From a virus: a stretch of DNA of 64,000 nt. Positions 5,477-58,875 of the stretch are shown here, piece by piece. The stretch's first letter is position 1. Each line of letters opens with the position of its first letter. The position numbers and the translations under genes were made by a program. The notes beneath the pieces are model-generated. The model made no database searches. It was not told where the DNA came from and was given only the letters and a program-made list of their open reading frames with translations. The stretch covers positions 1 to 64,000 of the IMG/VR virus record IMGVR_UViG_3300043446_003193. One strand, written 5' to 3'.

Positions 5477-6751
5477 CTACCAAACGATAGTTTCTTCATC
5501 AGTTACATTGTCCTCAACCTCATTGAAAAGTTGAGTTTCTTCATCTGATTTAATATATTTTTGTAGCAATTGAGTCATAAATACTCTCTCACTATCCAAC
5601 CCACCATCATTACTGAAATAAGGTAAGATTGCGATTTGTGCAGCTTCAAACAAACTGAAACCGTCGTAAACCAATCCAGCAGCTTCTACATTCACACGAG
5701 TAGAAACGATAGTTGAAATCTTACTTGCATCAGTTTTGATTAACTGGCGAGTCGTATCGGCAATCTCTGCCAATGCGTTTAATGAATACTCATCAGCTTC
5801 AGGGAACTTAAACTTCAATAACGCAAGTTCGTTTTCCTTATCTAGCAAGTCCATTTCAATTTGAACAAAACGGTCCATCAATGCTCTATCCATTACACGA
5901 GTTGCAGTGTACTCACCACCGATATTCGCGGTTGCGATAAATGTAACACCACTTGCTACTTTAACGATTGGTGAACCTTCGGCCTCATCTAATCGTAAAT
6001 ATCTTTGACCCTGATCTAACACAGTCATTAAGATATTAGCGGCTTCTGGGTGAGCTCTACTCAATTCATCCAATAGGATAATTGCGTTTGGAGTTTTGAT
6101 TGCTTTAACGAATGCCGATTCACTAAAGAAAGTACCATTCTCTTTGTTAAAGTGAGTGTTACCGATTAAGGTTGCTCTAGCATCTTGCGTAGCACCTAAG
6201 TTAAAGTAGAAATCAGGTCGTTTCAATGATTTAACCAACGATTGAGCGGCTAATGTTTTACCACAACCGGTCGGTCCTGTCATTAAGATATTCTTACCTC
6301 TAACTGCTGAACGGAGTAAATACTTCCACTTCAATTCTTCAATGAACAATCCATTAGGTTTTAATTCTTTACCTTTTGTATGGATAAATTCTTTTAAAGC
6401 ATCGTGAGTTTCAAATGATTCACTTACACTATCACATGCTTCATCCGATATTGTAGCAGAATGTTTTTTGAACTCATCAATTTCAACTAACTTATAAGAT
6501 AGTTTACCATTTTTACTTATGTACGCTTGGATAGCTTTGTTTTCAGCTTCTGCTTGTTTCATCTTAGCTGAACTAATACCCGCAACTTTTGTTACAGGTT
6601 GATTTTGTGTTGTCAACATACCGAATGTACGTCCCAACTTAATTACTTTATAGATTTCATTTGTGAAACCTACATTAAAGTCCTTGACTTTAGTTGATTT
6701 TCTTTTTACCATAGTAGTAGTTTTACTTTTGTTACTTTGATTTCTACGCAT
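5477..6751 (-). CDS. AAA+ ATPase, MoxR/CobS-like
   Basis: Walker A GPTGCGKT, Walker B ILLDE, sensor region; about 150 aa basic N-terminal extension; sits immediately downstream of the vWA gene. Confidence 0.8.
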   Translation of the reverse strand: MRRNQSNKSKTTTMVKRKSTKVKDFNVGFTNEIYKVIKLGRTFGMLTTQNQPVTKVAGISSAKMKQAEAENKAIQAYISKNGKLSYKLVEIDEFKKHSATISDEACDSVSESFETHDALKEFIHTKGKELKPNGLFIEELKWKYLLRSAVRGKNILMTGPTGCGKTLAAQSLVKSLKRPDFYFNLGATQDARATLIGNTHFNKENGTFFSESAFVKAIKTPNAIILLDELSRAHPEAANILMTVLDQGQRYLRLDEAEGSPIVKVASGVTFIATANIGGEYTATRVMDRALMDRFVQIEMDLLDKENELALLKFKFPEADEYSLNALAEIADTTRQLIKTDASKISTIVSTRVNVEAAGLVYDGFSLFEAAQIAILPYFSNDGGLDSERVFMTQLLQKYIKSDEETQLFNEVEDNVTDEETIVW

Positions 6752-6780
6752 AACTTTATTGTTTATTTATTGGTGATTTG

Positions 6781-6822
6781 ATACTCAAATATACGACTTT
6801 TTTTTGATACTACCAAATCTAT
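6781..6822 (-). promoter_or_regulatory. promoter upstream of AAA+ gene: -33 TTTG, 20 nt spacer, -7 TATATTTG (minus orientation)
   Basis: rc reads TTTGGTAGTATCAAAAAAAAGTCGTATATTTG, matching the Bacteroidota sigma-A consensus TTTG-N19-21-TAnnTTTG; part of a repeated cassette. Confidence 0.6.
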
Positions 6823-6855
6823 TTATAATTGATTGATTTCTAATGACTTATAGGC

Positions 6856-6884
6856 ATAAAAAAAGGGTAATATATAACCCTTTG
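6856..6884 (-). terminator. intrinsic terminator hairpin AAAGGGTTATATATTACCCTTT plus T-run after the vWA gene
   Basis: Minus-strand reading: GC-stem hairpin followed by TTTTTTTATGCC. Confidence 0.55.
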
Positions 6885-6944
6885 ATTATCAATAAGTTAT
6901 GAAAGGGGACCAGAAAGTCCCCATTTCATTGGGGCTTTCCGAGC

Positions 6945-9236
6945 CTATTTTTTGTTTTTTGATAGGAATAACTCGTTCATAGTTTTGGCAACTTCAAACA
7001 TATTTTCCACATTCACGTACTTAGCATCATTTCCATACATTTTTTTGAAAATTTGCCAATCGGATGAATGTTCAAAATTACTACCATAATCAGTAATAAA
7101 GTAAGAAAGTACATCTATACCATTATCTTTGATTTTGGTCACTTGCTTTTTTGTGTGAACTGCTGCAGGTTCACCCGAATAATGCATATCATCACTACCT
7201 CTACTGATTGAGTAAGAAGGTTGTCCGTCAGAAAAGTTTAAGAAATAACTTTGACTATCATTTGTTGATGGAACTAAGTTTTTCAATATTGCTTCAAAAC
7301 ACAAACCTTCTGGTGTAGTATTACTTGCTTGCAATATACCCATATATTTTGCGAATTGTTTAAATGAGTCTCTACGAGAATCGTGGATAATTGCAACATA
7401 TGGTAAACAATTACCACCACTATCGGTAGAACGAATTGAAACTTGTACATTGATATTACGAGCCATTTCACATGCTTTTACAATAGCGACGGTTGATACA
7501 ATACACTTTCTTAACTTATCACCTTGCATTGAACCGGAATAGTCAATTGATATGTGTAAGTTTGCTTTCTTAAACTGGTCAACTTCATTTGTATAAAACA
7601 CGTTCTCATTATCATAACCTAATGAAGCAACCATTCTACCGTCAATCTTACCACGTTTCAATCTACTGAATATCGTTTCACGACTTTCACTACGAACTTG
7701 CAGTTTCTTACCCAATAGAGTACCTAACATTGTACCCTTACGAACTTCCTCTTCTGCCCATATCTTTGGCTCACCTGTTCTCCAATCGTTATTAGAGAAC
7801 GGAAAGTCTTCGGATTTTAATAGATTTTCTGTCAATCGTTTTACTACGATACAGTCTACACCTTTCATTTGTGTACCATATCTATCCATACCATTACCTA
7901 CACGAACCAATTCGGTATCTGATTCTTGAATGTCTTTTAGTTTTTCCAACTCGCTCTTTTGAACATTCTTCTTTTTGATATTACCATTGATGAAGTCCTT
8001 TTGCTTTTGGATTTTCTTATCCAATTGTTTTTTAGCAGTATCGGATAACTTCACTTTAGTATTACCTTGCTGACCCTGTCCATCATCAGTATTACCCAAT
8101 TTAGCAGTCGCTTGTCCACTAACATTTCCATTTCCACCGCCCATTTCACTGCCATTATCTTCACTATCACCATCTTCAATTTCAGTAATCTCTACTTCGT
8201 TCTCATCTCCATCACCACTTTGTCCTTTACCCAATCCTTTACCTTTCATCATCTCTGCGTTTTCGTAAGGAACGGTTTTAAGTATCTCAGCAAGAATGTC
8301 AATAGATAATTGGAAACTATCTTTGGTTGATGTCAAACGGCTAATATCTTTTAGGTTTACCATACGATATATGGCTCTCAAACCTTTTAACTTAGATAGG
8401 TCAGTTTTTTCGTTCATCAAGTTGATAATACGGAACATATAGGCTTCAAACGTCTCATCCGTATATTCATCACTTGCGATACCTTTGGTAACGATTTTAT
8501 CATTGAAATAGTTATCATACATTTGAGTATAATAATCTCTATAACCAGGTGCTGATTTGAAAATATACATATCAATACGTCTATCTTCTACCCAATTAGT
8601 AAGAGAACTGATGATACCGAATATTTCTTCATTCATTGAACCTTTACTACCAATCACACCGGTAGACAAATACATCTCATTGAATAGATTTTCGTATTTT
8701 GGGTATTGTTTAGTATATCCTTTGATAGTATCATCTATTTTATCAATAGTCCAACTCGGTGTTGTGATACCATTTGCAATTTCATTTGCAGTATCACTCA
8801 TAATCTTTCGTTGTAATCTTTGATAGTTACTAAACATTTCGTTCATATTAGATAACAGATCAAAGTCAGATAATAGAATGTGTGAACCTTCGTGCAATGC
8901 TAAACCAACTGAAACGTCAAATTTATCATCTACATCTGCAGAAAGGATAACTTTTTTACCATCCGTTTTACTATCACTTTTTGTAGCGAATGTAACAGGT
9001 ATATTCTTTTGTGTAACGATTTGAACGAAATTGGCAATAGCTCGTCTTACGGATGCCAACTTATAAAGGTTATTAGTTTTTTTGAAAAGGTCTAAATCCT
9101 TCTTTTGGAAACCACCATAGGTTTCTAATACATCATACGAAGTATCGTAATCATCATACCAAAATGATGATACTTTACTTTTCGCGTTGACTAGGTAATC
9201 TTTTGTACCCGTCTTAAAATTCTCATACCAACTCAT
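6945..9236 (-). CDS. von Willebrand factor A domain protein, CobT-like partner of the AAA+ ATPase
   Basis: C-terminal vWA domain with MIDAS DxSxS (IDYSGSM); Gly/Asp/Glu-rich acidic linker; 763 aa. Confidence 0.75.
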   Translation of the reverse strand: MSWYENFKTGTKDYLVNAKSKVSSFWYDDYDTSYDVLETYGGFQKKDLDLFKKTNNLYKLASVRRAIANFVQIVTQKNIPVTFATKSDSKTDGKKVILSADVDDKFDVSVGLALHEGSHILLSDFDLLSNMNEMFSNYQRLQRKIMSDTANEIANGITTPSWTIDKIDDTIKGYTKQYPKYENLFNEMYLSTGVIGSKGSMNEEIFGIISSLTNWVEDRRIDMYIFKSAPGYRDYYTQMYDNYFNDKIVTKGIASDEYTDETFEAYMFRIINLMNEKTDLSKLKGLRAIYRMVNLKDISRLTSTKDSFQLSIDILAEILKTVPYENAEMMKGKGLGKGQSGDGDENEVEITEIEDGDSEDNGSEMGGGNGNVSGQATAKLGNTDDGQGQQGNTKVKLSDTAKKQLDKKIQKQKDFINGNIKKKNVQKSELEKLKDIQESDTELVRVGNGMDRYGTQMKGVDCIVVKRLTENLLKSEDFPFSNNDWRTGEPKIWAEEEVRKGTMLGTLLGKKLQVRSESRETIFSRLKRGKIDGRMVASLGYDNENVFYTNEVDQFKKANLHISIDYSGSMQGDKLRKCIVSTVAIVKACEMARNINVQVSIRSTDSGGNCLPYVAIIHDSRRDSFKQFAKYMGILQASNTTPEGLCFEAILKNLVPSTNDSQSYFLNFSDGQPSYSISRGSDDMHYSGEPAAVHTKKQVTKIKDNGIDVLSYFITDYGSNFEHSSDWQIFKKMYGNDAKYVNVENMFEVAKTMNELFLSKNKK

Positions 9237-17982: not shown

Positions 17983-18054
17983 CGCTTTCCGAGAATTACG
18001 ATATCTCGCCCCCATCGTTAACAGCGATGTGCTCTGCCTCTGAGCTAGGAAAGC
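17983..18054 (-). tRNA. tRNA-Asn(GTT) with atypical 9 nt T-loop
   Basis: rc: GCTTTCCTAGCTCAGAGGCAGAGCACATCGCTGTTAACGATGGGGGCGAGATATCGTAATTCTCGGAAAGCG; the 5' acceptor overlaps the last 3 codons of the HNH gene at 18045..18401. Confidence 0.7.
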
Positions 18055-18401
18055 TTTTGTTTTTCTATTTCATCATGTATTTCCATGTGACAATTACAAC
18101 ATACTAAAATACATTTATCTAATTCTTTTTTCATTTTTTCCCAACTTATACTAGGTCTTGATAAAGAATATTCTTTTTCACTTGGTTCTAAATGATGGAA
18201 TGCTAATGCTCTATTACATTTATCATATCCACATTTTTCACATTTACCACCTTTGTATTCAATCGCTTTGATTTTCATTTTATCTCTACGATTAGATACT
18301 GAAATAGATGCACATTTTTTACATCTATACGCACCATCTACTCTTAATACAAATTCAGTTTTTCCATGTGTTTTACATTCTTTAATTTCTGTCTTATTCA
18401 T
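18045..18401 (-). CDS. HNH endonuclease (Cys-rich, CCNCH)
   Basis: Multiple CxxC pairs and the HNH signature LVCCNCHMEIH; embedded in the tRNA array, 3' end overlapping tRNA-Asn by about 7 nt. Confidence 0.65.
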   Translation of the reverse strand: MNKTEIKECKTHGKTEFVLRVDGAYRCKKCASISVSNRRDKMKIKAIEYKGGKCEKCGYDKCNRALAFHHLEPSEKEYSLSRPSISWEKMKKELDKCILVCCNCHMEIHDEIEKQKLS

Positions 18402-18542: not shown

Positions 18543-18974
18543 AAAACAAAAAACCCCAACTTAATTAAAAGTCAGGGTTTTCCATAAATTATTTAAAATA
18601 GACGTTCCTAACTTTACATACGAATACCACCCCAAATCTGATTCGGTGTACTACAAAGTGTATGTAATGTTAAGTTTTTCATTTTTATTTTTTTTTAAGT
18701 AATTCAATTTCAAAATACGCCATCCAAGTCATGCTCTGGTTATTATCAGCCTCATCAAATTACTTTGTACACAAGCAGAGTTTAGAGGGAGGCGGTAACT
18801 CTTTGTAGTGTACTGCTACTAATCCGGCAATCTTTTATCGTCTCTGATTGCATTTTTATTGTGAAAATCCTCCCTAAAACACTTATTACCAATTTTATTA
18901 TATCGTTCTATCTTTTAGGTCATTTAAACGAACCGACTGTTGAATAAGAAACAGCCAAAAGGTTGACCACGAAA

Positions 18975-19047
18975 GAGCGAATGTGGGAATTGAACCCTAT
19001 CTTCCACCCCGTTAAGAGTGGTGTGCTTCCGTTACACTATATTCACT
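18975..19047 (-). ncRNA. tRNA-like gene with probable 8 nt anticodon loop (CTTAACGG) and weak T-stem: candidate suppressor/frameshift tRNA or pseudogene
   Basis: rc: AGTGAATATAGTGTAACGGAAGCACACCACTCTTAACGGGGTGGAAGATAGGGTTCAATTCCCACATTCGCTC. Acceptor AGTGAAT/ATTCGCT pairs 7/7 (one G-U); D-arm paralogous to the Arg(ACG)/Gln tRNAs. Confidence 0.4.
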
Positions 19048-19954
19048 TAAAATGAGTGAGATTACCTCATTGGGAGTACCAACTTTAGAAAGATTATTTG
19101 TTTCCTTTCCTATCCACTACCTTTTGAGTAGTACCGATACAATGTGGATGATTTGAGACTATCAGTCTTTGAGTTACGTCTTACTCTCTTTATACTCCGC
19201 TTCTTCAAATCTGCCGACCTGATTAAACCTTGCGGGTTTAGAAGTTTTTCCAAAGAATCACAGACCTCTTGCGGAGGTATCGTGGCAAGGAACAGCTCCC
19301 TACTATGTACACACCTTTCGTCCGTAACTGGCAAACACTTATGCTTTTATTTAAATTGAATAATCAAATCCGCATTTGATAAAAGGGTTGGTTTGTAGAT
19401 GGGTTCAGGTAGCGGTTTGCCAACCAGCTCCCTCAACTTTTGGCCGAGAGAATACTGAACTACCCGATGTGTTATCGTCAACACCATTTTTCAAGTCATC
19501 TTCATTAATAGGGATTGGTGTCCCACATTAAAGGTTAGTAACAACACCACTTGTACACCAACATACCTTACGTCCTTTCGGATAGCTTGGTTTTAAGACC
19601 ACTCTTAAATTGAATACCGCAATAGTGTAAAGTGATTAGCCTTACATTTCTTACAGGTATTCTATGGGTTATTCTTATTGTTCTTCCGAACTCAACCGAA
19701 GTATCTACTTACCCCGGTTATTCAAACTCTTCCGATATAGTGTTACCCTTTCGTACAAAGCTCAAATAATATCCCACTTGCATACTTAAGTTATTCTCTC
19801 CTTACGGGGAGAGTAACCGCAGATTGTGTAAACCTAACAATCCACTTTATCCTACTTTCGTAGTTTATTTGACGACCATATGCGGCCGTTGTTTACTATG
19901 TAGAAAAATCTACTATGTAAAATATTTTCAATCTTTTAAAGAACTATTCGTTTT

Positions 19955-19995
19955 AATAAATATAACAATAATTTTTTTTATTACCAAATATTTTT
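19955..19995 (-). promoter_or_regulatory. promoter (copy 1 of 4 in tandem): TTTG, 20 nt spacer, TATATTTA
   Basis: rc reads TTTGGTAATAAAAAAAATTATTGTTATATTTATT. Confidence 0.45.
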
Positions 19996-20060
19996 AAAAC
20001 TTTTTTTGTAAACTTGATAACGAGTATCTTTCATCACCTATTGTTTCTCATTTACTTATG

Positions 20061-20092
20061 TAATATACGATAATTTTTTTAAACTACCAAAT
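20061..20092 (-). promoter_or_regulatory. promoter (tandem copy 2)
   Basis: rc reads TTTGGTAGTTTAAAAAAATTATCGTATATTAC. Confidence 0.5.
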
Positions 20093-20202
20093 ATATTTTC
20101 AAAAAACTTTTAAGATGTTTGGTATCCGGCTTTCTTCCCTATTGGATAGGTCACTCAATCGGTTTTATTATTTGATGGCTTCAACCAATCATCTTAAATG
20201 TA

Positions 20203-20232
20203 AGATACGATAATTTTTTCAAACTACCAAAT
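20203..20232 (-). promoter_or_regulatory. promoter (tandem copy 3)
   Basis: rc reads TTTGGTAGTTTGAAAAAATTATCGTATCTTAC. Confidence 0.5.
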
Positions 20233-20313
20233 CTTTTTTATTTTTTTGTTGAACATTTTCGGCTGTGTTTACTTACACCATTTAATACTTCCTACTTCTG
20301 AACAACTTTGTAA

Positions 20314-20343
20314 AGATACGAAAACTTTTTCAAATTTCCAAAT
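20314..20343 (-). promoter_or_regulatory. promoter (tandem copy 4), immediately downstream of initiator tRNA
   Basis: rc reads TTTGGAAATTTGAAAAAGTTTTCGTATCTTT. Confidence 0.5.
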
Positions 20344-20350
20344 CTTTTTT

Positions 20351-20424
<74 letters not shown>

Positions 20425-20432
20425 ATATTATG

Positions 20433-20832
20433 TGGAGATGAGGGGATTTGAACCCCTGTCTTACAAAGAACTAATAATACCAGCATATCACACGTTTATT
20501 TCAGTTTCTACTGAAAAAATATTTAATTTAGTTAAAGTGAGTTTAAGGGTTCAAATTAAAAAATAACTCTTCATAACGGAGTCTCACTGTCCTATACTTT
20601 TAGGTGTATTAAACCTTTGTAGACACTTCTGTTACTAGGCGTATGTGTACCGGCCCTATTGTTGTGATTAGGCTGCTACAGCGTAATCAGCACCTACAAA
20701 CGCCATTAAATCGTTGTAAGTCATTGTTGACATTTCGTCATTTATTGTTTTGTACATAGTTTAAAGAGGTATAGTACATATCTCTACGTGTGGTACTACT
20801 ATTTGCATTGCAATCAATTCCATAGCATCCCC
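20433..20832 (-). ncRNA. ssrA: tmRNA (ssrA-like), about 400 nt; candidate tag ORF ...G-A-D-Y-A-V-A-A-stop
   Basis: 3' end rc AGACAGGGGTTCAAATCCCCTCATCTCCACA resembles the tmRNA 3' consensus GGACGGGGGTTCAAATCCCCCCGGCTCCACCA. A 5' GGGGATG about 400 nt upstream (rc of 20826..20832) pairs with 3' CATCTCC. Internal frame GGT GCT GAT TAC GCT GTA GCA GCC TAA encodes an ssrA-like tag. Promoter motif at 20881..20912 gives a ~35 nt leader. Confidence 0.6.
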
Positions 20833-20880
20833 ATTCAAAGAACTACACAATAATTATATATTTTTGTGATTTGAATATCA

Positions 20881-20912
20881 AATATACGACAAATATTCCA
20901 AATTACCAAATA
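20881..20912 (-). promoter_or_regulatory. promoter upstream of tmRNA: TTTG, spacer, TATATTTG
   Basis: rc reads TTTGGTAATTTGGAATATTTGTCGTATATTTGA. Confidence 0.5.
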
Positions 20913-20947
20913 ATTTTTAAAAAAAGTTATAAATAATTGAAAATCAA

Positions 20948-21379
20948 TCACTTATATATTAACTTAAATCCTAATGCTTTTGCTACTTTTTGTGATTTTA
21001 TGTTCCAATCATCTATTTCAATCTGTATTTTACCCCTTGTATGTTCCTTTATAACCAAATACAACAAATCTATAACTCCCAGTTTTCTTAAAGATGTAGG
21101 TTTTTTAGAAAATACATTATATAGGTAATATTCAGTATTACTATCTTCCCTTAACCAACAATAACAAAATGGATTTTCGTTTTTATATCCAACAAACATT
21201 TTTTCACCTTTTTGGATTCTATTCATAGCTTCTCCAACATCAAACATCCCATCCCAAACTATTTCTGAATTAAACAAATCTATACATTTTTGTATTTCGT
21301 TTTGATCAGTTGTTTCCTTTATTTGTATATCCGTTTTTCTATCAACCAATTCCGAATGATTTAATAAAAACTCTTTCAT
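20948..21379 (-). CDS. hypothetical protein (143 aa), possibly GNAT-like
   Basis: ORF track; weak resemblance only. Confidence 0.4.
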   Translation of the reverse strand: MKEFLLNHSELVDRKTDIQIKETTDQNEIQKCIDLFNSEIVWDGMFDVGEAMNRIQKGEKMFVGYKNENPFCYCWLREDSNTEYYLYNVFSKKPTSLRKLGVIDLLYLVIKEHTRGKIQIEIDDWNIKSQKVAKALGFKLIYK

Positions 21380-28922: not shown

Positions 28923-30123
28923 AATTACCTTTTGATGGAAATCTAGTCCATCCATTAGACCATATTGGTTTGGATAGTGTTTCCATTTCAGCTTTTGTAT
29001 AAGATACCTCTTTGTTACCTTGTGATAAAGCTTTTGTTTTCATATCTGCTGCAGTAAATACAGTAGAAGTAGATTTGAAGTTTAACAATGGGTCAAATGC
29101 CTGAATTTCATTGTTTTCAAATTTAGAAACCCCATCTTTGTAAGCTTGTGCAGTTTCGTTACTTTCAATTGAAAACCCACCTTTTTGATAACCAATGATT
29201 TTTGAGTTAGTCATTGTAAATTGAGTTGCACGTCTCCATCTTAAACCTAAATTATGGTTTGCTAAAGAAGCTGCATCAAATGGTCCAACTAAAATCATAT
29301 TATCCAATTTAGGATGTGTGAATGGCTGTGCGGTTGTACCTGTTCCATCATTATCACACTCCACACCATTTCCAGCATCACCAGCATCTACGAATTGTGG
29401 GTCTCTCTTTGATACTGAATAAGATACCGAACCTCTATATCCAAAATCAAAATCGTAATCATCATCAGCAGTTGCGTATGCGTATAAGTTTTTAGCGTTT
29501 ACAGTTCCACCAAAGAATTCAAATGCATCATCGTTAGCGTAAACAGTTTGGATATACTCTAAAGTTGTTCCACTACCTACACCACCTAATGTTAATCCAT
29601 TGATTTCAGAGTTTGGCATTGCTGCAATTCCTGCATATTCAATTCTAACATATTTTAGGATACCACTATTATCCAAATCGTTAGTTCCACCATAAGGTCT
29701 ACCAATACCACCTTCAATTGTTGGTTCAGAAGTTCTATTGGTAGTTGCTCTACCTAATATAACTACACCACCCCAATCACCAGGCAATCTTTCACCAACA
29801 GCTTTACCAGATGTAAATACGATTGGTTTTGCTGCAGTTCCTTCTGCGATTATTTGTGCACCTCTTTCAATAATTAATGCACCTTTCTCAGCGATATCGG
29901 ATACGATTGTTGTACCTGGCTGAATGATAAGTTTTGCACCATCAATTACATAAACATATCCTTTTAAGGTCCATGTTTTATCTGATGTTAAAGTTGTTGT
30001 TGTGTTAATGTTACCACTCAAAATTGTTGATGATGGTACATTTACAGGAATATCAGTTCCACCTAATTCTTTTTTGCAACTGAATAATCCCAATACTAAA
30101 ATAATTCCTAATAGTTTTTTCAT
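28921..30123 (-). CDS. lipoprotein (400 aa), beta-rich; possible right-handed beta-helix
   Basis: Lipobox LGLFSC; immediately downstream of the TonB-dependent-receptor-like gene with a 4 nt overlap. Confidence 0.55.
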   Translation of the reverse strand: MKKLLGIILVLGLFSCKKELGGTDIPVNVPSSTILSGNINTTTTLTSDKTWTLKGYVYVIDGAKLIIQPGTTIVSDIAEKGALIIERGAQIIAEGTAAKPIVFTSGKAVGERLPGDWGGVVILGRATTNRTSEPTIEGGIGRPYGGTNDLDNSGILKYVRIEYAGIAAMPNSEINGLTLGGVGSGTTLEYIQTVYANDDAFEFFGGTVNAKNLYAYATADDDYDFDFGYRGSVSYSVSKRDPQFVDAGDAGNGVECDNDGTGTTAQPFTHPKLDNMILVGPFDAASLANHNLGLRWRRATQFTMTNSKIIGYQKGGFSIESNETAQAYKDGVSKFENNEIQAFDPLLNFKSTSTVFTAADMKTKALSQGNKEVSYTKAEMETLSKPIWSNGWTRFPSKGN

Positions 30124-32372
30124 AAATTCAAATTTAATGTTAATGAAATTGTTTGTTCGTTGTTTGTTTTTATAAGATTTCTCTTTGTTTGTAACTTTTG
30201 ATAATAGATTGATGGTTGCGCAAATACATCGCCTATTGCCAATTTTATTTCCCCTTTATTTAATTTATGTAAAAGAGTTATATCCAATACATCTCTGCTG
30301 TTTTCAAAAATGTCTGGATAACCCTGAAATCCTATTGCTGATATTCTATCACCTACTCTATTGTAAGTTATGTTAATTGTATTTTTCTTTTTGTGAATAT
30401 TAAATCCACTATTTAATACATAATTTGATTGTCCCTGTAATTGTCTTTTAACTCCTTTAACATTTACTTCAGAATTCATCACAGAAGCGTTTGTGTAAAC
30501 ATCAAACCAATCATTTAATTTTTTACGAAATTCCAATTCAACACCATAAAGATATGCGTTATTGGGATTTGAATAAGTTAATAATAGATTAGATGGAACT
30601 GAACCATCTGCTACTATTTGCTCAATTGGTTTTATAAAGTTTTTACCAAAAAAAGATACTGAAATATTTTCTCCCGCGTTTGGATATAATTCCCATTTCA
30701 AATCTAAATTGTATATGTCAGATTTTTCCAATTTAGGATTACCCAATAATTGTGCATTTCTTACAAAATCATAATAAGCAAAATTAGCTACTTCTCTAAA
30801 CTCAGGTCTTGCTAATGTTTTACTTAATGAAAATCTATATTTTGTTTTTTCTAAATTGTAAGAAAGATTTAGTGATGGTAATACATCCAAATATTCTCTA
30901 TTAACTTTAACTTTACTTCCACTAAAATCTGCAGTAGATACATCAAATAGATTATATTCAGTTCTAACGCCTGTATTTAATTTCCATAAACCAAATTCTT
31001 TGTCCAACATTACATACCCACTACCTAAATCAAAATCAGCAGTATATTTGTCTGTGTTGTTTGTTATCTCATCTAACATATCAGTTGAAAGATAACGAAA
31101 TATTCTTGCATTAAATCCTCTAATCTTTTTTAAGTATCCACCACCAATCTTAATATCACCAAACGATTTATTAACATTACCATTAAAACTATTTTCATCC
31201 ATTACACTCCAAAAACGATATGTATCTCTCCATGCAGTTGTATATGGTTCGTTTACTCCTAATGATTTTGTAATTGGATTAACTCTATAATCAGGTTGTT
31301 CTCTGAATATAAAATTGTATCCTAAATTAAAATCCCAAGTTTTAAGTTTACCATCAAATTGAGAATTAACTACAACATTGTTTATATGGTTAGATGAATT
31401 ACTATGAACATTTTGAACATTATCATAGTTTTCACCATTTCTATTCATATAAGAATCATCGGCTTGATAGTTCACCAATGTTTTCCAACTATATCGGTTC
31501 TCACCTAAATAAGTTAAATTCAATAAACCATTTGCGGAAAATCTTTTTGAGAATAAAGTATCTCTATAATCGTATGCTAATTCAGTTGAAGATTGATAAT
31601 CTATTCTATCTATATAATTCAGTCCATAAGAATTTCTAATTGTTGAACTGAATAAAGCGTTGAATTTGTTTTTCTTTACACCAAATGATAGGCCACCATT
31701 TAAGTTTGGAGATGATGTAAACCCTTCTATGATTGGATTACTTAATTGTTTTGTGTATAACCTCTTATCACCATTACTACTAATACGATATCCGTAAGTA
31801 GATGGGAATGTGGAAGGGAATTCAGTAGCTTGAACTAACTTAAAATCTTTAAGAGATGAAACTGAGCCCCAACCACTTCCCAATGAGATATTAAAAAAGT
31901 TATCGGATACTTCTTTTGTTGAAACTTGCACCAATCCACCACTCCAATCGCCAGGTAGATTTGCCGATGCCGATTTAGATACTATAATATTATCAATTAA
32001 TGCCGTTGGAATTAAATCAAAAGAAAATGCTCTCTTATCAGGTTCAGTTGATGGTAGAAGGGTTTTGTTTAACATAGCAGAATTATAACGGTCTGCTAAT
32101 CCTCTTACTAATACAAACTTATCGTTTTGTATAGTAACACCACTTACTCTTTTAAGTGCATCCCCAACATTTCTATCAGGTGTTTTTTTAATAAAATCAA
32201 TGGATACACCATCCGAAACTACTGATGCGTTACGAATGGTTGATATTACAGCTACTTCAGTAGATTTTTTACCTGCTGAACGGACTGTAACCGTTGATAA
32301 TTGTTTGGAAAATAATGTGTCTTGGGAATATGTTACAAATGGAAGTAACAATAACAATAAAAAAATCCTCAT
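30120..32372 (-). CDS. TonB-dependent-receptor-like outer membrane protein (750 aa)
   Basis: Signal peptide; TonB-box-like STVTV; plug motifs DALKRVSGVTIQ...FVLVRGL...RYN; beta-rich C-terminus. Confidence 0.65.
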   Translation of the reverse strand: MRIFLLLLLLPFVTYSQDTLFSKQLSTVTVRSAGKKSTEVAVISTIRNASVVSDGVSIDFIKKTPDRNVGDALKRVSGVTIQNDKFVLVRGLADRYNSAMLNKTLLPSTEPDKRAFSFDLIPTALIDNIIVSKSASANLPGDWSGGLVQVSTKEVSDNFFNISLGSGWGSVSSLKDFKLVQATEFPSTFPSTYGYRISSNGDKRLYTKQLSNPIIEGFTSSPNLNGGLSFGVKKNKFNALFSSTIRNSYGLNYIDRIDYQSSTELAYDYRDTLFSKRFSANGLLNLTYLGENRYSWKTLVNYQADDSYMNRNGENYDNVQNVHSNSSNHINNVVVNSQFDGKLKTWDFNLGYNFIFREQPDYRVNPITKSLGVNEPYTTAWRDTYRFWSVMDENSFNGNVNKSFGDIKIGGGYLKKIRGFNARIFRYLSTDMLDEITNNTDKYTADFDLGSGYVMLDKEFGLWKLNTGVRTEYNLFDVSTADFSGSKVKVNREYLDVLPSLNLSYNLEKTKYRFSLSKTLARPEFREVANFAYYDFVRNAQLLGNPKLEKSDIYNLDLKWELYPNAGENISVSFFGKNFIKPIEQIVADGSVPSNLLLTYSNPNNAYLYGVELEFRKKLNDWFDVYTNASVMNSEVNVKGVKRQLQGQSNYVLNSGFNIHKKKNTINITYNRVGDRISAIGFQGYPDIFENSRDVLDITLLHKLNKGEIKLAIGDVFAQPSIYYQKLQTKRNLIKTNNEQTISLTLNLNL

Positions 32373-42685: not shown

Positions 42686-45600
42686 TTATTTACCGAAAAT
42701 GTATCTGATACCAAATTGTGCTGTCCACACATCAAATACTGATGAGTTTTTGCTATAAGTATCTTTCAACAATACAGTTGAGCCATCTAACAATCTTTGT
42801 GTTGCAAATTTGTAAACTGGCTCGTTATTAACTACTGATGAATAAGTTAAAATTGCCGGATTTGTAAATCTTTGAGATACACCCCAATCTTCATTAACCA
42901 TATTACCAAAGTTAAGAATATCAAAACGTAATTGAATTGTGTTTCTATCGCCCTTAACATTTACATAGAAATCTTGAACTACTGAAAGGTCAAATCTATG
43001 TAACCAAGGTAAGAATGAACCATTACGTTCTGCGTACTGTCCTTTACGAGTTGATAGGTAATCATCTTGATTAATGTAATTCCAAAATGCTGCTTGTTGT
43101 TCAGCTTCGGTGTAAGTTTTTGTACCTACAACCAATGGTGCGAATTTAACTTCTGTCATTGATTTTGGAACATATATTAATTCATTATTATTAACTCTAT
43201 CTCCGTTCAAATCACCTGCAACAAAGTAAGATGTACTACCACTTCTTTGTCCAACATATCCTATTGTTACTGAAGTTGCTGCACCGTATCCTTTCTTACC
43301 ATATTCAATTCTATATCCCAATAAACCTACTGCTCTATCAGGAACTACGAAATCTGAATTTGAAAGAATTGGGTTGTTGTTACCATTGATACTTCTAATT
43401 GATTGCCATGTTCCACTTGCGATAGAACCTGCACTCATAAAGTCTTCAGCGTTTGATTTAGTGTAAGCAATACTACCGAAGAAACCTTTTGAATATGGTT
43501 TTTCTAATTTAACTGAAAGTGCATTGTAGAATGACTCATCGTTATTAGTTAAAACCGCACCCATAGATACATTATCGTTTACTCTTACACCAGCATCAGT
43601 TCTTGCATACAATGCTCTTTGGTCTGCTCCACTAAATTTACCAATTGGTGCATCCAAGTTTGCGTTGTAGTAATGAACTGCATTAAGTGTTTTGTTGTAT
43701 AAATACTCTACACTACCTACTAAACCTAATGGTAATTTTTGGTCTACTGCTAAATTAGTTTTCCAAACTTGTGGAAACTTATAGTTAGGGTCAGTAAATG
43801 CTAAATCAAATGTTGAAGGAAGGGTTGGAGTAGAAGGGATGAAATATTTTTCAGGGTTAGCAGTAAAACCATATTGAGATGCTGCTGCACCACTTACATC
43901 AATAAATCCTGTCAATACACCATTGTTACCAACTTGGTTAGATACGAATACATACGGAGGTCTACCGGTGAATACACCTGTACCACCTCTAACTTGTGTT
44001 TTCTTATCGTTCTTAACATCCCAGTTGAAACCAAATCTTGGTTCCCACAATAATTGTGTTTTAGGTAAAGTTGCTGTATTGAATTTCTCACCACCTGCAA
44101 ATGTCATAGCAGTTACTGCTTTATTTTCCAATGCTGTGTTTTCAAATCCAATAATAGCAGTTCTTAAACCAAATGTTAATTTTAAGTTTTGAAGTGCTTG
44201 GTATTCATCTTGTCCGTATAAATCCAATCTTTGAGTTTTCAACACTTGCATTGGGTCAACTGCCCCAGGTAATGCTGAATATCTGTATTGAAATCTATAT
44301 GGTGCCGTTGTAGATGGTTTACCACCATTTGCCAAACTCTCATTTGCTGCTTTATAGAAGTCAGCCAAAGAGTTGAAAATATAAACACCATTTGATGCAG
44401 GATAGAATAAGTTGTTAGATTGGTATTTCTCATAATTGAAACCTAATGTGAAAGTGTGCTTATCTGCATACTTTGTTAAGTTATCGGTAATGTGGAAAGT
44501 ATTGTAATCTAATTTATTTCCTGGAGTGAATGGGTCAAAACCTGTTGAAATATAGTTTACTCTTGCAGAAGTTCCATCAGCAATATCAATTGTTGGGAAC
44601 ACACCTGTCATATATGCTCTATCTTCAATTTGTTTATCATAACCAACGATTAAGTTGTTATGTAATGTGTTTGAAAATTTAGAGTTTAATTCAACAACTG
44701 CTGAACGAGTATTATCCATAATGATATAACCACTATTCTTATAACTCATAGAATTAAAGATAGTAGTTCTATTACCTGCACCTGCTGATTGAGAGTTAGA
44801 AATGTTAATCTCTGCATCAGAATTGTGGTGAACATAACGAGCAGTTAATTTATGCTTATCGTTGATGTTCCAGTCTACTCTTACTAAGAATTTCTTACTT
44901 GCATTTGTATTAGAATATCCTTCCCATGGGCCAGTTACATAATTGAATTTATCTTTCATAAAATCAGAAAGAGTTTTCAAATCATCATACTTAACTCTTG
45001 TTGGTTGAGCACCACCCAACGGAGAACCTGCAGATGTCCAAGTTGTACCTGGCTCTGTTTTCTCTAATTGTTCGTAGTTACCAAAAATGAATAATTTGTT
45101 TTTGATAATTGGTGCACCTAAACGGAAACCAGTAACTTTCTCATCAAATTTAGATGCGGTTACAGGAACTCCTGCTGCTGAATTACCAACATAACGAGAA
45201 CTATTATCTCTTTGTGTTTGATAATAAGAACCTTCAACTTTGTTTGTACCTGAACGTGTAACTGCATTGATACCTGCGCCAGTAAACCCACTCTGACGAA
45301 TATCAAATGGAGCAACATTCACTTGTAATTGTTCAATCGCATCTAATGATATTGCAGATGAACCTGTTCTACCACCAGCTTGTGCCGAACTACCCAATCC
45401 AAAATTGTTATTGAATTGAGAACCATCAATTGTGAAGTTATTCAAACGAGAGTCTTGTGCTCCGAATGAAGAACCATCACCCAATGGATTGTACTTTGTA
45501 ATTCCGTTGATTGTTCTTGCTCCTGTAATAGGAATAGAAGTCAATTCTCTTCTACTAAATACTTGTGCAGCACCAGTTCTATCCTTAGAGAATAGATTGT

Positions 45601-45967
45601 TTTTGGTTCCTGTCACAACTACATCTTTCAAAGAAGTTGCTTCACTTAATAACTTAAAGTCTACGTTTGATGTAACACCTAATTGAGTGTTTACATCTTT
45701 CTCTTCTCCTTTTCTAAATCCTACAAACGAAGCATGGATTGTATATGGTCCACCTACTCTTACGGCAGGTAAAACATAAACACCATTTTTGTTTGTAACC
45801 GATTTGTACTCTGTACCTGTCGGTGTATGTGTAGCGTGAATTGTTGCACCTACTAACACCTCATTTTTTTCGTTCTTAACAACACCAGAAATAGTAGAAG
45901 TGGTAACTTGACCAAATCCAATTAAAACTGATACTGAAAGGAACAACGATAGAATCGCTTTTTTCAT
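42686..45967 (-). CDS. TonB-dependent receptor with N-terminal carboxypeptidase-regulatory-like domain (SusC/RagA-type architecture, 1093 aa)
   Basis: Signal peptide ending FGQ; CarbD-like ISGVVKNEKNEVLVGATI; plug DVVVTG...RRELTSIPITGARTINGITKYNPLG; long beta-barrel. Confidence 0.75.
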   Translation of the reverse strand: MKKAILSLFLSVSVLIGFGQVTTSTISGVVKNEKNEVLVGATIHATHTPTGTEYKSVTNKNGVYVLPAVRVGGPYTIHASFVGFRKGEEKDVNTQLGVTSNVDFKLLSEATSLKDVVVTGTKNNLFSKDRTGAAQVFSRRELTSIPITGARTINGITKYNPLGDGSSFGAQDSRLNNFTIDGSQFNNNFGLGSSAQAGGRTGSSAISLDAIEQLQVNVAPFDIRQSGFTGAGINAVTRSGTNKVEGSYYQTQRDNSSRYVGNSAAGVPVTASKFDEKVTGFRLGAPIIKNKLFIFGNYEQLEKTEPGTTWTSAGSPLGGAQPTRVKYDDLKTLSDFMKDKFNYVTGPWEGYSNTNASKKFLVRVDWNINDKHKLTARYVHHNSDAEINISNSQSAGAGNRTTIFNSMSYKNSGYIIMDNTRSAVVELNSKFSNTLHNNLIVGYDKQIEDRAYMTGVFPTIDIADGTSARVNYISTGFDPFTPGNKLDYNTFHITDNLTKYADKHTFTLGFNYEKYQSNNLFYPASNGVYIFNSLADFYKAANESLANGGKPSTTAPYRFQYRYSALPGAVDPMQVLKTQRLDLYGQDEYQALQNLKLTFGLRTAIIGFENTALENKAVTAMTFAGGEKFNTATLPKTQLLWEPRFGFNWDVKNDKKTQVRGGTGVFTGRPPYVFVSNQVGNNGVLTGFIDVSGAAASQYGFTANPEKYFIPSTPTLPSTFDLAFTDPNYKFPQVWKTNLAVDQKLPLGLVGSVEYLYNKTLNAVHYYNANLDAPIGKFSGADQRALYARTDAGVRVNDNVSMGAVLTNNDESFYNALSVKLEKPYSKGFFGSIAYTKSNAEDFMSAGSIASGTWQSIRSINGNNNPILSNSDFVVPDRAVGLLGYRIEYGKKGYGAATSVTIGYVGQRSGSTSYFVAGDLNGDRVNNNELIYVPKSMTEVKFAPLVVGTKTYTEAEQQAAFWNYINQDDYLSTRKGQYAERNGSFLPWLHRFDLSVVQDFYVNVKGDRNTIQLRFDILNFGNMVNEDWGVSQRFTNPAILTYSSVVNNEPVYKFATQRLLDGSTVLLKDTYSKNSSVFDVWTAQFGIRYIFGK

Positions 45968-55704: not shown

Positions 55705-56482
55705 TTAAGTAAATTTTTGAAAAATATTCTTTAATAGAACCTTTCATTTTTTCATTTAAATCATGCGGTTTACTATCTACAAAGTGAAATATTTTTACAT
55801 TGGAAACATTTTCTAATTTTAAATTATTAACCGCATCTACATCAAATAGTAAATAGTTATAATCTGAACTTAAATAGGTAACTATAATTGTGTTAGAACC
55901 AACAAAGTAATCTAATGCAGGTGTATCACTATTAAACCTTTTAATTTGCTTAGATGCTTCTCTAAAAAGAGAACTAATATTTTGGTCAAGATATTCGGAT
56001 ATATTGATTATTTGAAATCCTGCATTTGGAGAATGTTTATCAAATGGTTCATACCATTCAGGAGCTTCTGCTATTGATATAGCTAAATCACTCTCCAATT
56101 CTAATAAATCAAAATGAGAATTACATAATATATCCCCATCACACTTTATTGCGTAATCGTAATTTGATTTTAAATATTCCGGACCATCACAATACCAATA
56201 CATAGCATCTGGCCATCTACCTTTTTCTCCTTTTTCAGTAAATTGTATATCAGTATATTGGTTATAATTTTTTTTACAATCTCCTGTAATTAATTTAATT
56301 CCATTATCTTTACAAAGTTTTTCAACTTCTTTTAAATTTTGTTCATTTATATCAGTAAAATATACATAATCTAATTCATTACCAAAATGTTTTTGAAACG
56401 ATTTTAGCATTTTAATTGGTTCTCTATTTTCTGATAAAATGTATTCCGAATTACCTGCACAATATACTACCCACTTACCCAT
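55697..56482 (-). CDS. putative nucleotide-diphospho-sugar transferase
   Basis: GT-A-like pattern; weak. Confidence 0.35.
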   Translation of the reverse strand: MGKWVVYCAGNSEYILSENREPIKMLKSFQKHFGNELDYVYFTDINEQNLKEVEKLCKDNGIKLITGDCKKNYNQYTDIQFTEKGEKGRWPDAMYWYCDGPEYLKSNYDYAIKCDGDILCNSHFDLLELESDLAISIAEAPEWYEPFDKHSPNAGFQIINISEYLDQNISSLFREASKQIKRFNSDTPALDYFVGSNTIIVTYLSSDYNYLLFDVDAVNNLKLENVSNVKIFHFVDSKPHDLNEKMKGSIKEYFSKIYLNE

Positions 56483-57852
56483 TATTTCTTATAATTTTCT
56501 AAATAATGTTTTAAATCCTCAGGCGTACCTAATCCCCACATATTTTCAGCAGGTATATGATAGTTGTATATTTTTTTACCATTTAATATCGCTTCATTGT
56601 ATACAGGACAAACATAAAATTCATTATTTGTTCTAATATTTTTTTCAATCATTTGTTCAGCAGATGCTACAAAATCAGAACCATGTTTAAAATAATAAAC
56701 ACCAGCAGTAGCTTGATTTGAAATTGGATTTTTTTCTGCAACTTCGGTAATTAACCCATCTTCATTTGTTTTAGCAAATGACCATTTTGGATGAGTTGAT
56801 TCAAAACACATTATTGCACCATCAAAATCTTTTTCATTCATTTGATACATAAATTCAGTAGAATCCCATTGAATAAATTGGTCAGAATTTGTTAATATTA
56901 ATTGATTTTCATTATTAATATGTTCCTTTGCCAATAAGACCGTACATGCTGCTCCCTGCGTCATTCCATCAACTTCTACAATTTTACAATTAGGAGTGAT
57001 TAAGTTTAATAGAGTATCTAAATTGTATTTTTCTCTATGAGATTTTTGAACAATATAAATAAATGTAGCCTCAATGTTCATACTTTCAACTACAACCTGT
57101 ATCATAGGTTTACCATTAACATCAATTAGTGGTTTAGGAAATGTATATCCTGCTTTTTCAAATCGGCTTCCGGCTCCTGCCATTGGGATAACTACATTTA
57201 ATTTTTCATCATGCCATTTATTCATAATATTTTGTTTTGTGTTATGTAACTTACTAAAAATTTTTGAATATTCCAAATCTTTTGAATTTTTAACTCTAAG
57301 TACGATTGCCTTAGAACGATGTGCCGATAACAAACCTTGTGGAGAATCTTCTATAATTAAAGTTTCTTCTGGTAAACAACTCATCATTGACATTGCTTTC
57401 CAATAAATTTCAGGATGCGGCTTTGGGTTTTTAATATCATCATTTGTAACTATCACATCCAAATATTCAATTACACCCGTTTTTGCTAATGCAACTAATG
57501 CTGTTCTTCGTATACAATTTGTACAACATCCAAGCATATAACCCTCTTGTTTTAATTTTTTAAATATACTTAAAATATTATCATCCGGTGTTATATGTGC
57601 AAACTCTTCTAATGTTAGTTTTTGTTTTTTATCATATATTTGTTTATGGGATGTGGTTGGAAGTCCTTTATCTTGCGTAAGCATATTTAATTTTGTAATG
57701 GTTTTTAATCCATCATATCTAGTAACATGCTCATGCTCTGTAATTATGTACTTAGGGTCTATTTCTGAAATAGCATTATTTAATGTTCTATAATGTATTT
57801 CTTTCGTATCGGTTATTACACCATCTAAATCAAATAGTATTAATTTCGTCAT
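56482..57852 (-). CDS. bifunctional HAD phosphatase / sugar-phosphate nucleotidyltransferase
   Basis: N-terminal ILFDLDGVITDT (HAD motif I); central VVIPMAGAGSRFEKAGYTFPKPLIDVNGKPMI (NTP-transferase G-x-G-x-R loop). Confidence 0.65.
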   Translation of the reverse strand: MTKLILFDLDGVITDTKEIHYRTLNNAISEIDPKYIITEHEHVTRYDGLKTITKLNMLTQDKGLPTTSHKQIYDKKQKLTLEEFAHITPDDNILSIFKKLKQEGYMLGCCTNCIRRTALVALAKTGVIEYLDVIVTNDDIKNPKPHPEIYWKAMSMMSCLPEETLIIEDSPQGLLSAHRSKAIVLRVKNSKDLEYSKIFSKLHNTKQNIMNKWHDEKLNVVIPMAGAGSRFEKAGYTFPKPLIDVNGKPMIQVVVESMNIEATFIYIVQKSHREKYNLDTLLNLITPNCKIVEVDGMTQGAACTVLLAKEHINNENQLILTNSDQFIQWDSTEFMYQMNEKDFDGAIMCFESTHPKWSFAKTNEDGLITEVAEKNPISNQATAGVYYFKHGSDFVASAEQMIEKNIRTNNEFYVCPVYNEAILNGKKIYNYHIPAENMWGLGTPEDLKHYLENYKK

Positions 57853-58462
57853 AGTAACTGTTTTGTTTTTCTTGTCTTTGAATTGTTTTAGGATGTTTTA
57901 TGCAGTATACTTCTTCAAATGGAAAATTTGTATAAGATTCAAATCCACCTATTCTTTCATGAACTTTACCAGCCCACCCTATTGTTTCTTTATTTTTATA
58001 TATTCTAGTTTGAACATCTGGAAAATTTACCCAACCTTTTTCATCTACTTTCCAACCCCACTTTTGTATGTGTGCTTCTGTTAATCCTTCAACCGTATTT
58101 ATACGAGGAACTAATATAAGGTCTTTACCATCATTATTTGATAATATATCTTCTAAATTATAAATTAAATCATTTTCTAAAAATTCGTCTGCATCTAATT
58201 GAAAAATCCATTCACCATTACAATGTGAATTTAAAAAGTTTTTCCATTGTGCAAAATCTCCTGCAAATTCGGATTCTATAAGATGTATGTAATCTTCCTT
58301 TGCTTGAATTTCTAAATATTCAATTAATTCGGTTGGTGCTTTTGGAGTATCTAAAAGAACTACAATTTCAGAATTTTCTCCTTTATAGTTTAATAGTTGT
58401 GTAACCAATCTTATTGTTTCTTCTACCTCATTACAGGCAGTAATTGCGTAACTTATTTTCAT
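57830..58462 (-). CDS. glycosyltransferase family 2
   Basis: MKISYAITACNEVEE...LDAD. Confidence 0.6.
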   Translation of the reverse strand: MKISYAITACNEVEETIRLVTQLLNYKGENSEIVVLLDTPKAPTELIEYLEIQAKEDYIHLIESEFAGDFAQWKNFLNSHCNGEWIFQLDADEFLENDLIYNLEDILSNNDGKDLILVPRINTVEGLTEAHIQKWGWKVDEKGWVNFPDVQTRIYKNKETIGWAGKVHERIGGFESYTNFPFEEVYCIKHPKTIQRQEKQNSYYDEINTI

Positions 58463-58875
58463 TATAATATTTTATCGTTAGATGTTGTATAACTCCAAGC
58501 AGAACCACTTGGGTATCCGTATGTAGTTGATGATGGATTATACGAACCACTACTAAATGATACTATATTTGGATTGGCAATTGTAATAAATCCGGTAGTT
58601 CCAGGTGTTGTTGTAACTTGAAATCCAGGTGATGTTGTTCCTGGTGTGCAAGTTATTTTGTATGGATTATATGGGTCTGTCGGTGGTGGTGTAATATGTG
58701 GTGAACCATTTGGTATTCCCCATCCACCTACCCCAATTGGAGTTCCTATCGTTGGTTCATCACTAACTTCTGCCAATTTTTCTTTTAAGTAATCCCATTG
58801 TTTTGGAGTTACATTAAATTCATGTACTCCATCTGTAAATCCTTTTAACCAAATAACAAATTCTTTTGATGTCAT
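58462..58875 (-). CDS. Thr/Pro/Gly-rich protein (137 aa)
   Basis: Low-complexity TPGTT repeats. Confidence 0.4.
   Translation of the reverse strand: MTSKEFVIWLKGFTDGVHEFNVTPKQWDYLKEKLAEVSDEPTIGTPIGVGGWGIPNGSPHITPPPTDPYNPYKITCTPGTTSPGFQVTTTPGTTGFITIANPNIVSFSSGSYNPSSTTYGYPSGSAWSYTTSNDKIL

Follow-up and report, generated by a model that had tools for sequence, protein, structure and literature searches.

GOLLD RNAs are among the largest RNAs encoded by bacteria and phages and form a cage made up of 14 subunits; to our knowledge, no function has been assigned to them. The Rfam model RF02032 covers only the conserved 3' domain. In env-38 GOLLD, an RNA of 833 nt, a 5' domain (1-420) precedes this 3' domain (421-833), and the gene is found downstream of a Met-tRNA (PMC12286853). 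Here we analyze the region located upstream of a GOLLD gene in a 64,000-nucleotide stretch of viral DNA (IMG/VR record IMGVR_UViG_3300043446_003193, positions 1 to 64,000; hereafter, the window). In this region, copies of a promoter-like repeat are interspersed with three short candidate RNA genes named units A, B, and C. The reading that we favor, and that we hold to be rather probable, is that the region forms the beginning of a cluster of non-coding RNA genes, in which the promoter-flanked units A, B, and C are followed by GOLLD and by a tRNA array.

Two other kinds of described systems are relevant to this locus. Bacteroidota sigma-A promoters have a TTTG element at -33 in their consensus, and initiation takes place 5-7 nt downstream of the -7 box. 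In flavobacteria, this -7 box corresponds to TAnnTTTG and extends from -12 to -5 (PMC9723704, PMC7641319). T4-like phages carry promoter-early stem-loop (PeSL) cassettes, in which a repeated promoter flanks small variable genes (PMC2839356, PMC4122927).

A preliminary description of the window had located four head-to-tail promoter copies at about 19955, 20061, 20203, and 20314. All four were recovered and the positions were accurate to a few bases. A repeat search delineates a 41-nt direct repeat starting, on the + strand, at 19959, 20062, 20202, and 20313, with spacings of 103, 140, and 111 nt and 66-100% identity to the reference copy. A fifth copy (41-mer start at 20881) is found upstream of the transfer-messenger RNA (tmRNA) gene, and the motif extends genome-wide. 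It reads in the direction of the minus strand, which is also that of the tmRNA, tRNA, and GOLLD genes and of every gene in this part of the window. An A/T-rich tract is followed by TTTG-N20-TAnnTT (ATTTGGTAnTTTgAAAAAnTTnTCGTATnTT). With a weight matrix derived from the five copies, these score 46-59 bits, vs. 18 bits at best in 20 shuffled windows, and weaker copies appear at 6782, 9279, 12584, 15006, 46232, and 57242, all on the minus strand. Exact matches to the skeleton TTTGGNA-N16-GTATNTT number 11 across the window and always lie on the minus (coding) strand, for 0.04 expected (100 shuffles). The repeat is non-random in both distribution and orientation. Besides the tmRNA copy, six additional copies precede other genes. 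Where checked, the window copies are co-oriented with the next gene and located 14-43 nt before its start, as for three open reading frames (ORFs; 6782 to 6751, 9279 to 9236, and 15006 to 14989) and for a tRNA-Glu gene (17087 to 17073).

Several features of the repeat recall Bacteroidota sigma-A promoters. TTTG is invariant in the five copies and is separated from a TATNTT(T/A)N box by exactly 20 nt in all of them, immediately upstream of genes. With the position of the -7 box taken from PMC9723704, transcription starts were predicted 5 nt after the box. In units A, B, and C, the base at this distance is the first base of the terminal helix, as read from the sequence; these -7-box-to-helix distances are hand-read cases, the automated measure being unreliable in relatives because of bulges. 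The claim that the copies are promoters is thus supported at the sequence level, by the Bacteroidota -33/-7 architecture, the co-orientation, and the location just upstream of genes. The copy that precedes GOLLD is conserved in position in relatives (L010, L021, L024, L060, L077, L081, L085, and L093). Two differences from the described promoters have to be mentioned. Conservation of the spacer (GGTAnTTTnAAAnAnTTnTCG) and of the A/T tract in the window goes well beyond what the published consensus requires, and the -7 box is a complete TAnnTTTG (TATATTTG) in the tmRNA copy alone, the other four lacking the terminal G and reading TATCTTTA, TATCTTAC, TATATTAC, and TATATTTA. In relatives, many copies carry TATCTTTG or TATATTTG (among the matches listed). 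The conserved spacer could reflect an extra recognition factor, possibly phage-encoded; PHROGs and Pfam comparisons gave no sigma factor or RNA polymerase among the neighboring ORFs that would explain a phage-specific promoter.

The distribution of the motif in other genomes also points to Bacteroidota. A strict 24-base promoter pattern, used to scan IMG/VR viral contigs, is found in at least 119 of them. Among the matches listed, these contigs have 26-39% GC and the pattern is found upstream of ATG codons, of tRNA-Met genes, and of units B, C, and D (unit D is presented below). In a set of 185,579 genomes, with one genome per species, the same pattern is found in seven contigs, six of which are from Bacteroidota. 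Several of these matches correspond to phage-like fragments with tmRNA, tRNA-Met, and unit B; others are Prevotella or Bacteroidales contigs of 47-54% GC, in which the motif, an exact extended match, stands ahead of ORFs. Among the proteins encoded in the window are SusC-type TonB receptors that contain a CarboxypepD_reg domain. Receptors of the SusC type are a hallmark of Bacteroidota, and the host of this large phage is probably a member of this group. We infer that the repeat is likely a host-type promoter, close to the consensus, which serves throughout a group of large phages of Bacteroidota.

What lies between the promoter copies was then considered by comparison with L-numbered loci, which are viral contigs fetched by the promoter-pattern scan and by scans with the core patterns of the units. 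One option of the preliminary description was that each body between two promoters is a small RNA. Comparative data back this option, with helix covariation in units B and C (55 and 78 sequences, respectively) and with the conservation of unit A. Folding of each inter-promoter unit, which had been suggested as a check, was informative in part: unit B folds modestly better than its shuffles (z -2.2), whereas A (z -0.97) and C (z -1.78) do not. Since single-sequence energies are unremarkable except for unit B, the structural case rests on covariation. None of the three units corresponds to an Rfam 15 family (cmscan of 18900-20950, E<=10): only GOLLD, tmRNA, tRNA, and chance-level matches were returned. 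One of the latter, a tmRNA_permuted match at 20219-20492 overlapping unit A, has 12.8 bits vs. a gathering score of 47 (E 8.2). Judging from their alignments, units B and C are conserved, covarying RNA motifs outside Rfam.

Unit B forms a putative three-way junction. The strands of its P1 helix are AAGAUGAUUGGU and ACCAAACAUCUU, with the predicted start site at the first base. The P2 loop of 12-13 nt contains an invariant UAAUAAAACCGA, and the junctions are the invariant UUGAAGCCA, GUG, and AAGCCGGAYA, an invariance partly imposed, for loop and junctions, by the search pattern. The core GTTGAAGCCANNANNWAATAAAACCGA is found in at least 74 viral contigs, and blastn gives 29 unit B loci among the promoter-pattern matches listed. 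Covariation was evaluated on a hand-drawn structure using an alignment of 55 distinct sequences. P1 is paired at 93%; in seven of its nine pairs, both bases vary, and a single position may show up to five pair types. In P2, pairing reaches 100% and three of the four pairs covary (UCAA/UUGA, ACAA/UUGU, GUAG/CUAC, and others). P3 is absent in L010, L024, L062, and L083. The covariation score reaches 0.657, vs. 0.199 for shuffles (0 of 500 reach the observed score) and at most 0.197 with slid partners. Because P1 has many more G-U than A-C pairs (about 37 to 6), the minus strand would be the RNA strand of unit B.

Unit B is not tied to GOLLD. Indeed, a GOLLD 3' domain lies downstream in 38 of the 62 instances with enough flanking sequence, and other instances are found between protein genes. 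Unit B also occurs in Shine-Dalgarno-using phages, in short spacers between protein genes, without GOLLD or tRNA nearby. In L126, L130, and L133, and also in L129, L164, L134, L150, L124, and L152, it ends 16-52 nt before a start codon; for example, it is found between genes for a gp32-like single-stranded DNA-binding protein and a RecA-like protein, 16-17 nt before the start codon. In relatives, tRNA-Met ends 3-5 nt ahead of it. Self-cleaving ribozymes combine numerous invariant bases at the junction with peripheral stems that vary and with a scattering over intergenic sites. Unit B may be such a ribozyme or may bind a universally conserved factor, and the pattern fits both possibilities. Hepatitis delta virus (HDV)-like “theta” ribozymes sit in phage tRNA trailers; unit B is similar to them in its location after tRNA-Met in relatives, its invariant junction with variable stems, and its varied intergenic contexts. 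In contrast, no Rfam ribozyme model matches unit B at E<=10, and the window promoter is predicted to start at the first base of P1, so that nothing would be left upstream to cleave off. A resemblance of unit B strings (UUAGAAGC, GUAAUA, and AAAGAAAGC) to the GTPase-associated center of 23S rRNA was considered and set aside as a probable coincidence, order and pairing being different.

Unit C is a candidate hairpin whose stem strands are GUAAAU...AGUUUAC, again with the predicted start site at the first base. Its core TAGGNRATGAAAGATACTCG is found in at least 119 viral contigs. RNAalifold run on an ungapped alignment returned no structure, due to a bulged base, and a hand-drawn stem was then tested. 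This stem has 10 bp plus one bulged A and is 81.8% paired in 78 distinct sequences, whereas slid controls do not exceed 47%; in each of the 10 pairs, both bases vary, with a covariation score of 0.592 vs. 0.230. The loop of 21-23 nt, yUAUAGGnrAUGAAAGAUACUCG, is also unchanged in at least 18 loci that were found via the promoter pattern and not via the loop. Of the 92 unit C instances whose downstream sequence is long enough (among the matches listed), 65 are followed, 455-803 nt further on, by a GOLLD 3' domain. In most relatives, the conserved GOLLD start (GTTCTTTAAA) follows unit C immediately and the promoter is upstream of C (L069, L108, L174); there, unit C is the predicted 5'-terminal hairpin of the GOLLD transcript. 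In the subgroup of the window, an extra promoter copy separates unit C from GOLLD. Unit C is 98% identical where the adjacent GOLLD is 78-79% identical. It also occurs in higher-GC phages, 15-18 nt after tmRNA, with no detectable GOLLD (L226 8759-8810 and L245 2174-2225). A pairing of the loop with GOLLD was tried and rejected, complementary 6-8-mers being no commoner than for shuffled loops.

Unit A was recognized in three other contigs, L051, L235, and L271 (among the matches listed), with its own promoter copy in each. In L051, it is 94% identical, vs. 72% for the 5' half of GOLLD and 81% for tRNA-Met. This conservation argues for selection on the sequence.

Downstream of the last promoter copy, the 0.9-kb non-coding region of the preliminary description is a GOLLD RNA gene. 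The Rfam match to RF02032 at 19053-19467 (-) has 267.3 bits vs. a gathering score of 150 (E 4e-75) and covers positions 1-416 of the 416 of the model. The adjacent stretch 19468-19958, corresponding to the 5' half of the RNA, shows 72-86% identity across 25 loci, in each of which it adjoins the GOLLD 3' domain (blastn, among the matches listed). Since this 5' stretch is conserved and always contiguous with the 3' domain, the gene would extend over about 19053-19952, a size of ~900 nt that is in line with the 833 nt of env-38 GOLLD, as is the length of its 5' domain. The statement that no ORFs occur down to position 19047 was correct in substance, as only short mechanical ORFs are present, but the region is not featureless. 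The loci homologous to the window GOLLD are IMG/VR viral contigs. The match far above threshold, the conserved 3' and more variable 5' domains, and the location within a tRNA island of a phage and after a Met-tRNA, as for env-38 (PMC12286853), liken this locus to described GOLLD loci. It differs from them by the promoter-flanked small RNA genes upstream, of which there is no mention in PMC12286853 and PMC5737381; nor do the cores of units B and C occur among the supplementary sequences of the paper on GOLLD structure (PMC12286853). The tmRNA and tRNA-Met genes lie upstream of GOLLD, and 18 tRNA genes, including an atypical one, lie downstream. This neighborhood of units A, B, and C (tmRNA, initiator tRNA, GOLLD, and tRNAs) suggests, through guilt by association, a role around translation or around GOLLD. 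The coordinates of the features are collected in Table 1.

Table 1. Positions and main characteristics of the predicted features at the head of the RNA gene cluster (window coordinates).
Feature	Position	Length	Strand	Characteristics
Promoter copy 5	20879..20910		-	TTTG to -7 box TATATTTG; upstream of tmRNA; sole copy with full TAnnTTTG
tmRNA	20430..20832		-	ARAGORN; Rfam RF00023, 79.6 bits
tRNA-Met (CAT), initiator-like	20351..20424		-	C1xA72 mismatch and A73
Promoter copy 1	20311..20342		-	TTTG-N20-TATCTTTA; predicted start 20306
Unit A	20248..20306	59 nt	-	Small RNA candidate; GUUG...CAAC terminal helix
Promoter copy 2	20200..20231		-	TTTG-N20-TATCTTAC; predicted start 20195
Unit B	20112..20195	84 nt	-	Putative three-way junction; P1 20195-20184 with 20123-20112; P3 variable hairpin
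Promoter copy 3	20060..20091		-	TTTG-N20-TATATTAC; predicted start 20055
Unit C	20008..20055	48 nt	-	Putative hairpin with conserved loop AAUAGGUGAUGAAAGAUACUCG
Promoter copy 4	19957..19988		-	TTTG-N20-TATATTTA; weakest copy; predicted start ~19952, before GOLLD
GOLLD RNA	19053..19952	~900 nt	-	3' domain 19053-19467; 5' domain 19468 to ~19952
Atypical tRNA-like gene	18975..19046		-	6 nt after GOLLD 3' end; first of the tRNA array

The order of the modules varies among related phages. If P denotes a promoter copy, the window has tmRNA, tRNA-Met, P-A, P-B, P-C, P-GOLLD. The order is tRNA-Met, P-A, P-C, P-GOLLD in L051; tmRNA, P-tRNA, P-A, P-C, GOLLD in L235; tRNA-Met, P-B, P-A, P-D, GOLLD in L271; tRNA-Met, P-B, P-C, P-GOLLD in L077; and P-tRNA-Met, B, P-C, P-GOLLD in L081, L085, and L024. 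Loci of relatives contain one to four promoter-plus-RNA modules. Unit D (~65 nt, with a closing helix AAGAUUC...GAGAAUCUU) replaces C before GOLLD in L007, L039, L090, L094, L269, and L271, and a unit E (~100 nt) is found directly after tRNA-Met in L021, L039, and L094. When the window is compared with L051, L235, L271, L077, L081, and L069, content or order breaks at promoter copies, and the module order points to recombination at these copies. In L235, three promoter modules are almost identical to each other over ~50 nt, which suggests recent duplication or homogenization within the genome. In L090 (13358-13659), an insert containing a small ORF is found between two promoter copies, where other relatives carry an RNA unit.

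This organization is reminiscent of PeSL cassettes. In both cases, a short conserved promoter motif is repeated many times per phage genome and bounds small variable modules, and its copies coincide with points of insertion, deletion, and reordering between related phages. However, the cargo in the window consists of non-coding RNA genes and not of small ORFs, the repeat has no terminator stem-loop but only an A/T tract before each copy, and the promoter is of the Bacteroidota type and not of the Escherichia coli sigma-70 type.

According to the mechanism that we propose, the minus strand would successively carry a promoter, tmRNA, the initiator-like tRNA-Met, then a promoter before each of A, B, C, and GOLLD, and finally the tRNA array. 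The RNA polymerase holoenzyme of the host would recognize the copies, each start coinciding with the base that opens the terminal helix of the RNA located behind the copy. Separate primary transcripts would result, giving structured RNAs of 59, 84, and 48 nt and a GOLLD RNA of ~900 nt. Because there is no terminator-like site between the copies, read-through would probably also produce nested longer transcripts reaching into the tRNA array, which would need processing by nucleases. The repeated promoter would probably serve, in addition, as the point at which promoter-plus-RNA cassettes recombine.

A number of observations weigh against this proposal. The activity of the promoters, the start sites, and the ends of the RNAs are predicted, and the host assignment is indirect. 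In the four copies without the terminal G of the -7 box, the last four bases are TTTA or TTAC, and copy 4 is the weakest (46 bits) and does not match the skeleton pattern. The preliminary description had advised looking for terminators after each unit; there are none in 19950-20350, and discrete 3' ends need another route. The invariance of the unit B and C cores is partly imposed by the exact-match scans. Homologues of unit A are too few and too similar for covariation, and its fold is no better than that of shuffles. Finally, some relatives have no promoter between tRNA-Met and unit B, which are 3-5 nt apart, or between unit C and GOLLD. Since several relatives place them directly after tRNA-Met or before GOLLD, the units need no promoter of their own.

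A rival account is that a single long precursor starts at the tmRNA copy and that the four downstream copies are inactive A/U-rich linkers or nuclease entry sites between excised modules. The lack of terminator-like sites and the deviations from the -7 consensus agree with such a precursor, and co-transcription followed by processing does work for the units, since relatives carry them without an intervening promoter copy. However, the same co-oriented motif is found 14-43 nt before protein genes and a tRNA gene elsewhere in the window, and before ATG codons in many unrelated contigs, where the role of a linker would make no sense; moreover, the motif fits a host-type promoter architecture and, in every unit, the predicted +1 coincides with the first base of the helix. 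We therefore regard the single precursor as unlikely, even if it is the most serious competitor of separate promoters. A somewhat less probable possibility, already close to the other option of the preliminary description, is that promoters are stacked purely to boost GOLLD and the tRNA array, the bodies being functionless spacers. Head-to-tail copies without terminators would each add downstream transcription, so that a boost is a possible side effect, and the folding energies of A and C are unexceptional. But stacking leaves the conservation of the bodies unexplained: B and C, known from at least 74 and at least 119 contigs, respectively, show compensatory changes in each of their helices, C (98% vs. 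78-79%) and A (94% vs. 72%) are more conserved than the adjacent GOLLD, and B is also found far from any GOLLD or tRNA gene.

Two further explanations appear very improbable. Four direct repeats of ~40 bp, spaced by 103-140 bp in an A/T-rich non-coding stretch, have the look of iterons or operators for a phage DNA-binding protein, at a replication origin, a partition site, or a regulatory array. Yet copies are dispersed singly before genes across 40 kb, always co-oriented, and the motif is upstream of ORFs in contigs of Bacteroidales genomes too; at the locus itself, the inserted RNA units dictate by their length how far apart the copies are, and the copy number varies from 1 to 4 in relatives. 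To an equally small extent, the units might encode micropeptides, either MKDTRYQVYKKSFKNIW from the ATG of the unit C loop or a Met-Val-stop mini-ORF in unit A. The unit C ATG and the next 12 bases are conserved in all family members (among the matches listed), and all four unit A copies share a conserved ATGGTGTAA. Peptide coding by unit C was nevertheless rejected, as the frame stops after five codons in many members (…CTCGGTAG…) and is variable in length and sequence in others; in addition, the conserved stretch shows no synonymous variation, whereas the flanking stem covaries.

Other features of the region and of the window can be noted. GTTCTTTRA is found on the minus strand 11 nt before the mature 5' end of tmRNA (20843) and at the conserved 5' start of GOLLD (19944), with five copies on this strand of the window; in relatives (L051, L144), it is located just before tRNA-Met. 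It could be a shared leader or a processing signal. The phage tmRNA (20430-20832) has an unusually long predicted tag, DEMSTMTYNDLMAFVGADYAVAA, with near-identical tags in L027 and L265. For the tRNA-like gene that follows GOLLD, ARAGORN proposes a 2-nt “anticodon” (aa) and the Rfam tRNA model gives 31.6 bits; an 81%-identical copy is found at the same place in L024. Inside the tRNA array, between tRNA-Tyr and tRNA-Asn, an ORF for an HNH endonuclease is present (18045-18401, -; PHROG 2255, E 2e-28). In L156, the GOLLD gene (591-1692) contains a tRNA gene in its linker (667-739), and a second tRNA and a copy of unit B are located downstream. Concerning protein genes, two large ORFs, 42686-45967 and 30120-32372 (-), resemble TonB-dependent outer-membrane receptors, an unusual cargo for a phage; they show, respectively, an outer-membrane protein (OMP) beta-barrel with a CarboxypepD_reg domain and a Plug domain with a beta-barrel. 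Two products of the region 5477-9236 (-), an AAA ATPase assigned to PHROG “porphyrin biosynthesis” and a 763-aa protein matching PHROG “cobalamin biosynthesis protein” weakly, have the appearance of a CobS/CobT-like pair, with a copy of the promoter motif ahead of each gene. Glycosyltransferase and HAD/nucleotidyltransferase ORFs are found at 56482-62005. No close relatives were detected among deposited phages by blastn (distant mode) or tblastn, the only matches being tRNA-level ones, weak ones of GOLLD to uncultured huge phages, and one 33%-identical fragment.

Taken as a whole, the arrangement is a variant of known things, namely phage RNA-gene islands and repeated promoter cassettes. As for the motifs of units B and C, they have no match in Rfam and no description was found in the literature consulted on GOLLD (PMC12286853, PMC5737381). 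We tentatively suggest, as a possibility that falls somewhat short of an even chance, that B and C are two undescribed and widespread classes of phage RNAs which, with A, form shuffled cassettes working with the GOLLD/tmRNA/initiator-tRNA module. Unit B would then be a class with ~35 invariant junction and loop bases, present in phages of both Bacteroidota-type and Shine-Dalgarno-using hosts, either stand-alone or between ORFs. Unit C would be a hairpin with a conserved 22-nt loop, traveling with GOLLD and tmRNA. If this is true, A, B, and C could be partners or cargo of the GOLLD nanocage, and B could alternatively be a new ribozyme or a decoy for a cellular factor.

For this large group of phages, GOLLD would thus be preceded by a fixed set of short, promoter-flanked structured RNAs, which are candidate partners for it. 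Two motifs supported by covariation lie outside Rfam, and one of them is spread across phages of very different hosts. The near-consensus, portable promoter predicted in these Bacteroidota phages may be useful for genome annotation and synthetic biology. Finally, if the cassettes recombine at the promoter copies, the locus would represent a non-coding-RNA counterpart of the promoter-mediated module shuffling of T4-like phages.

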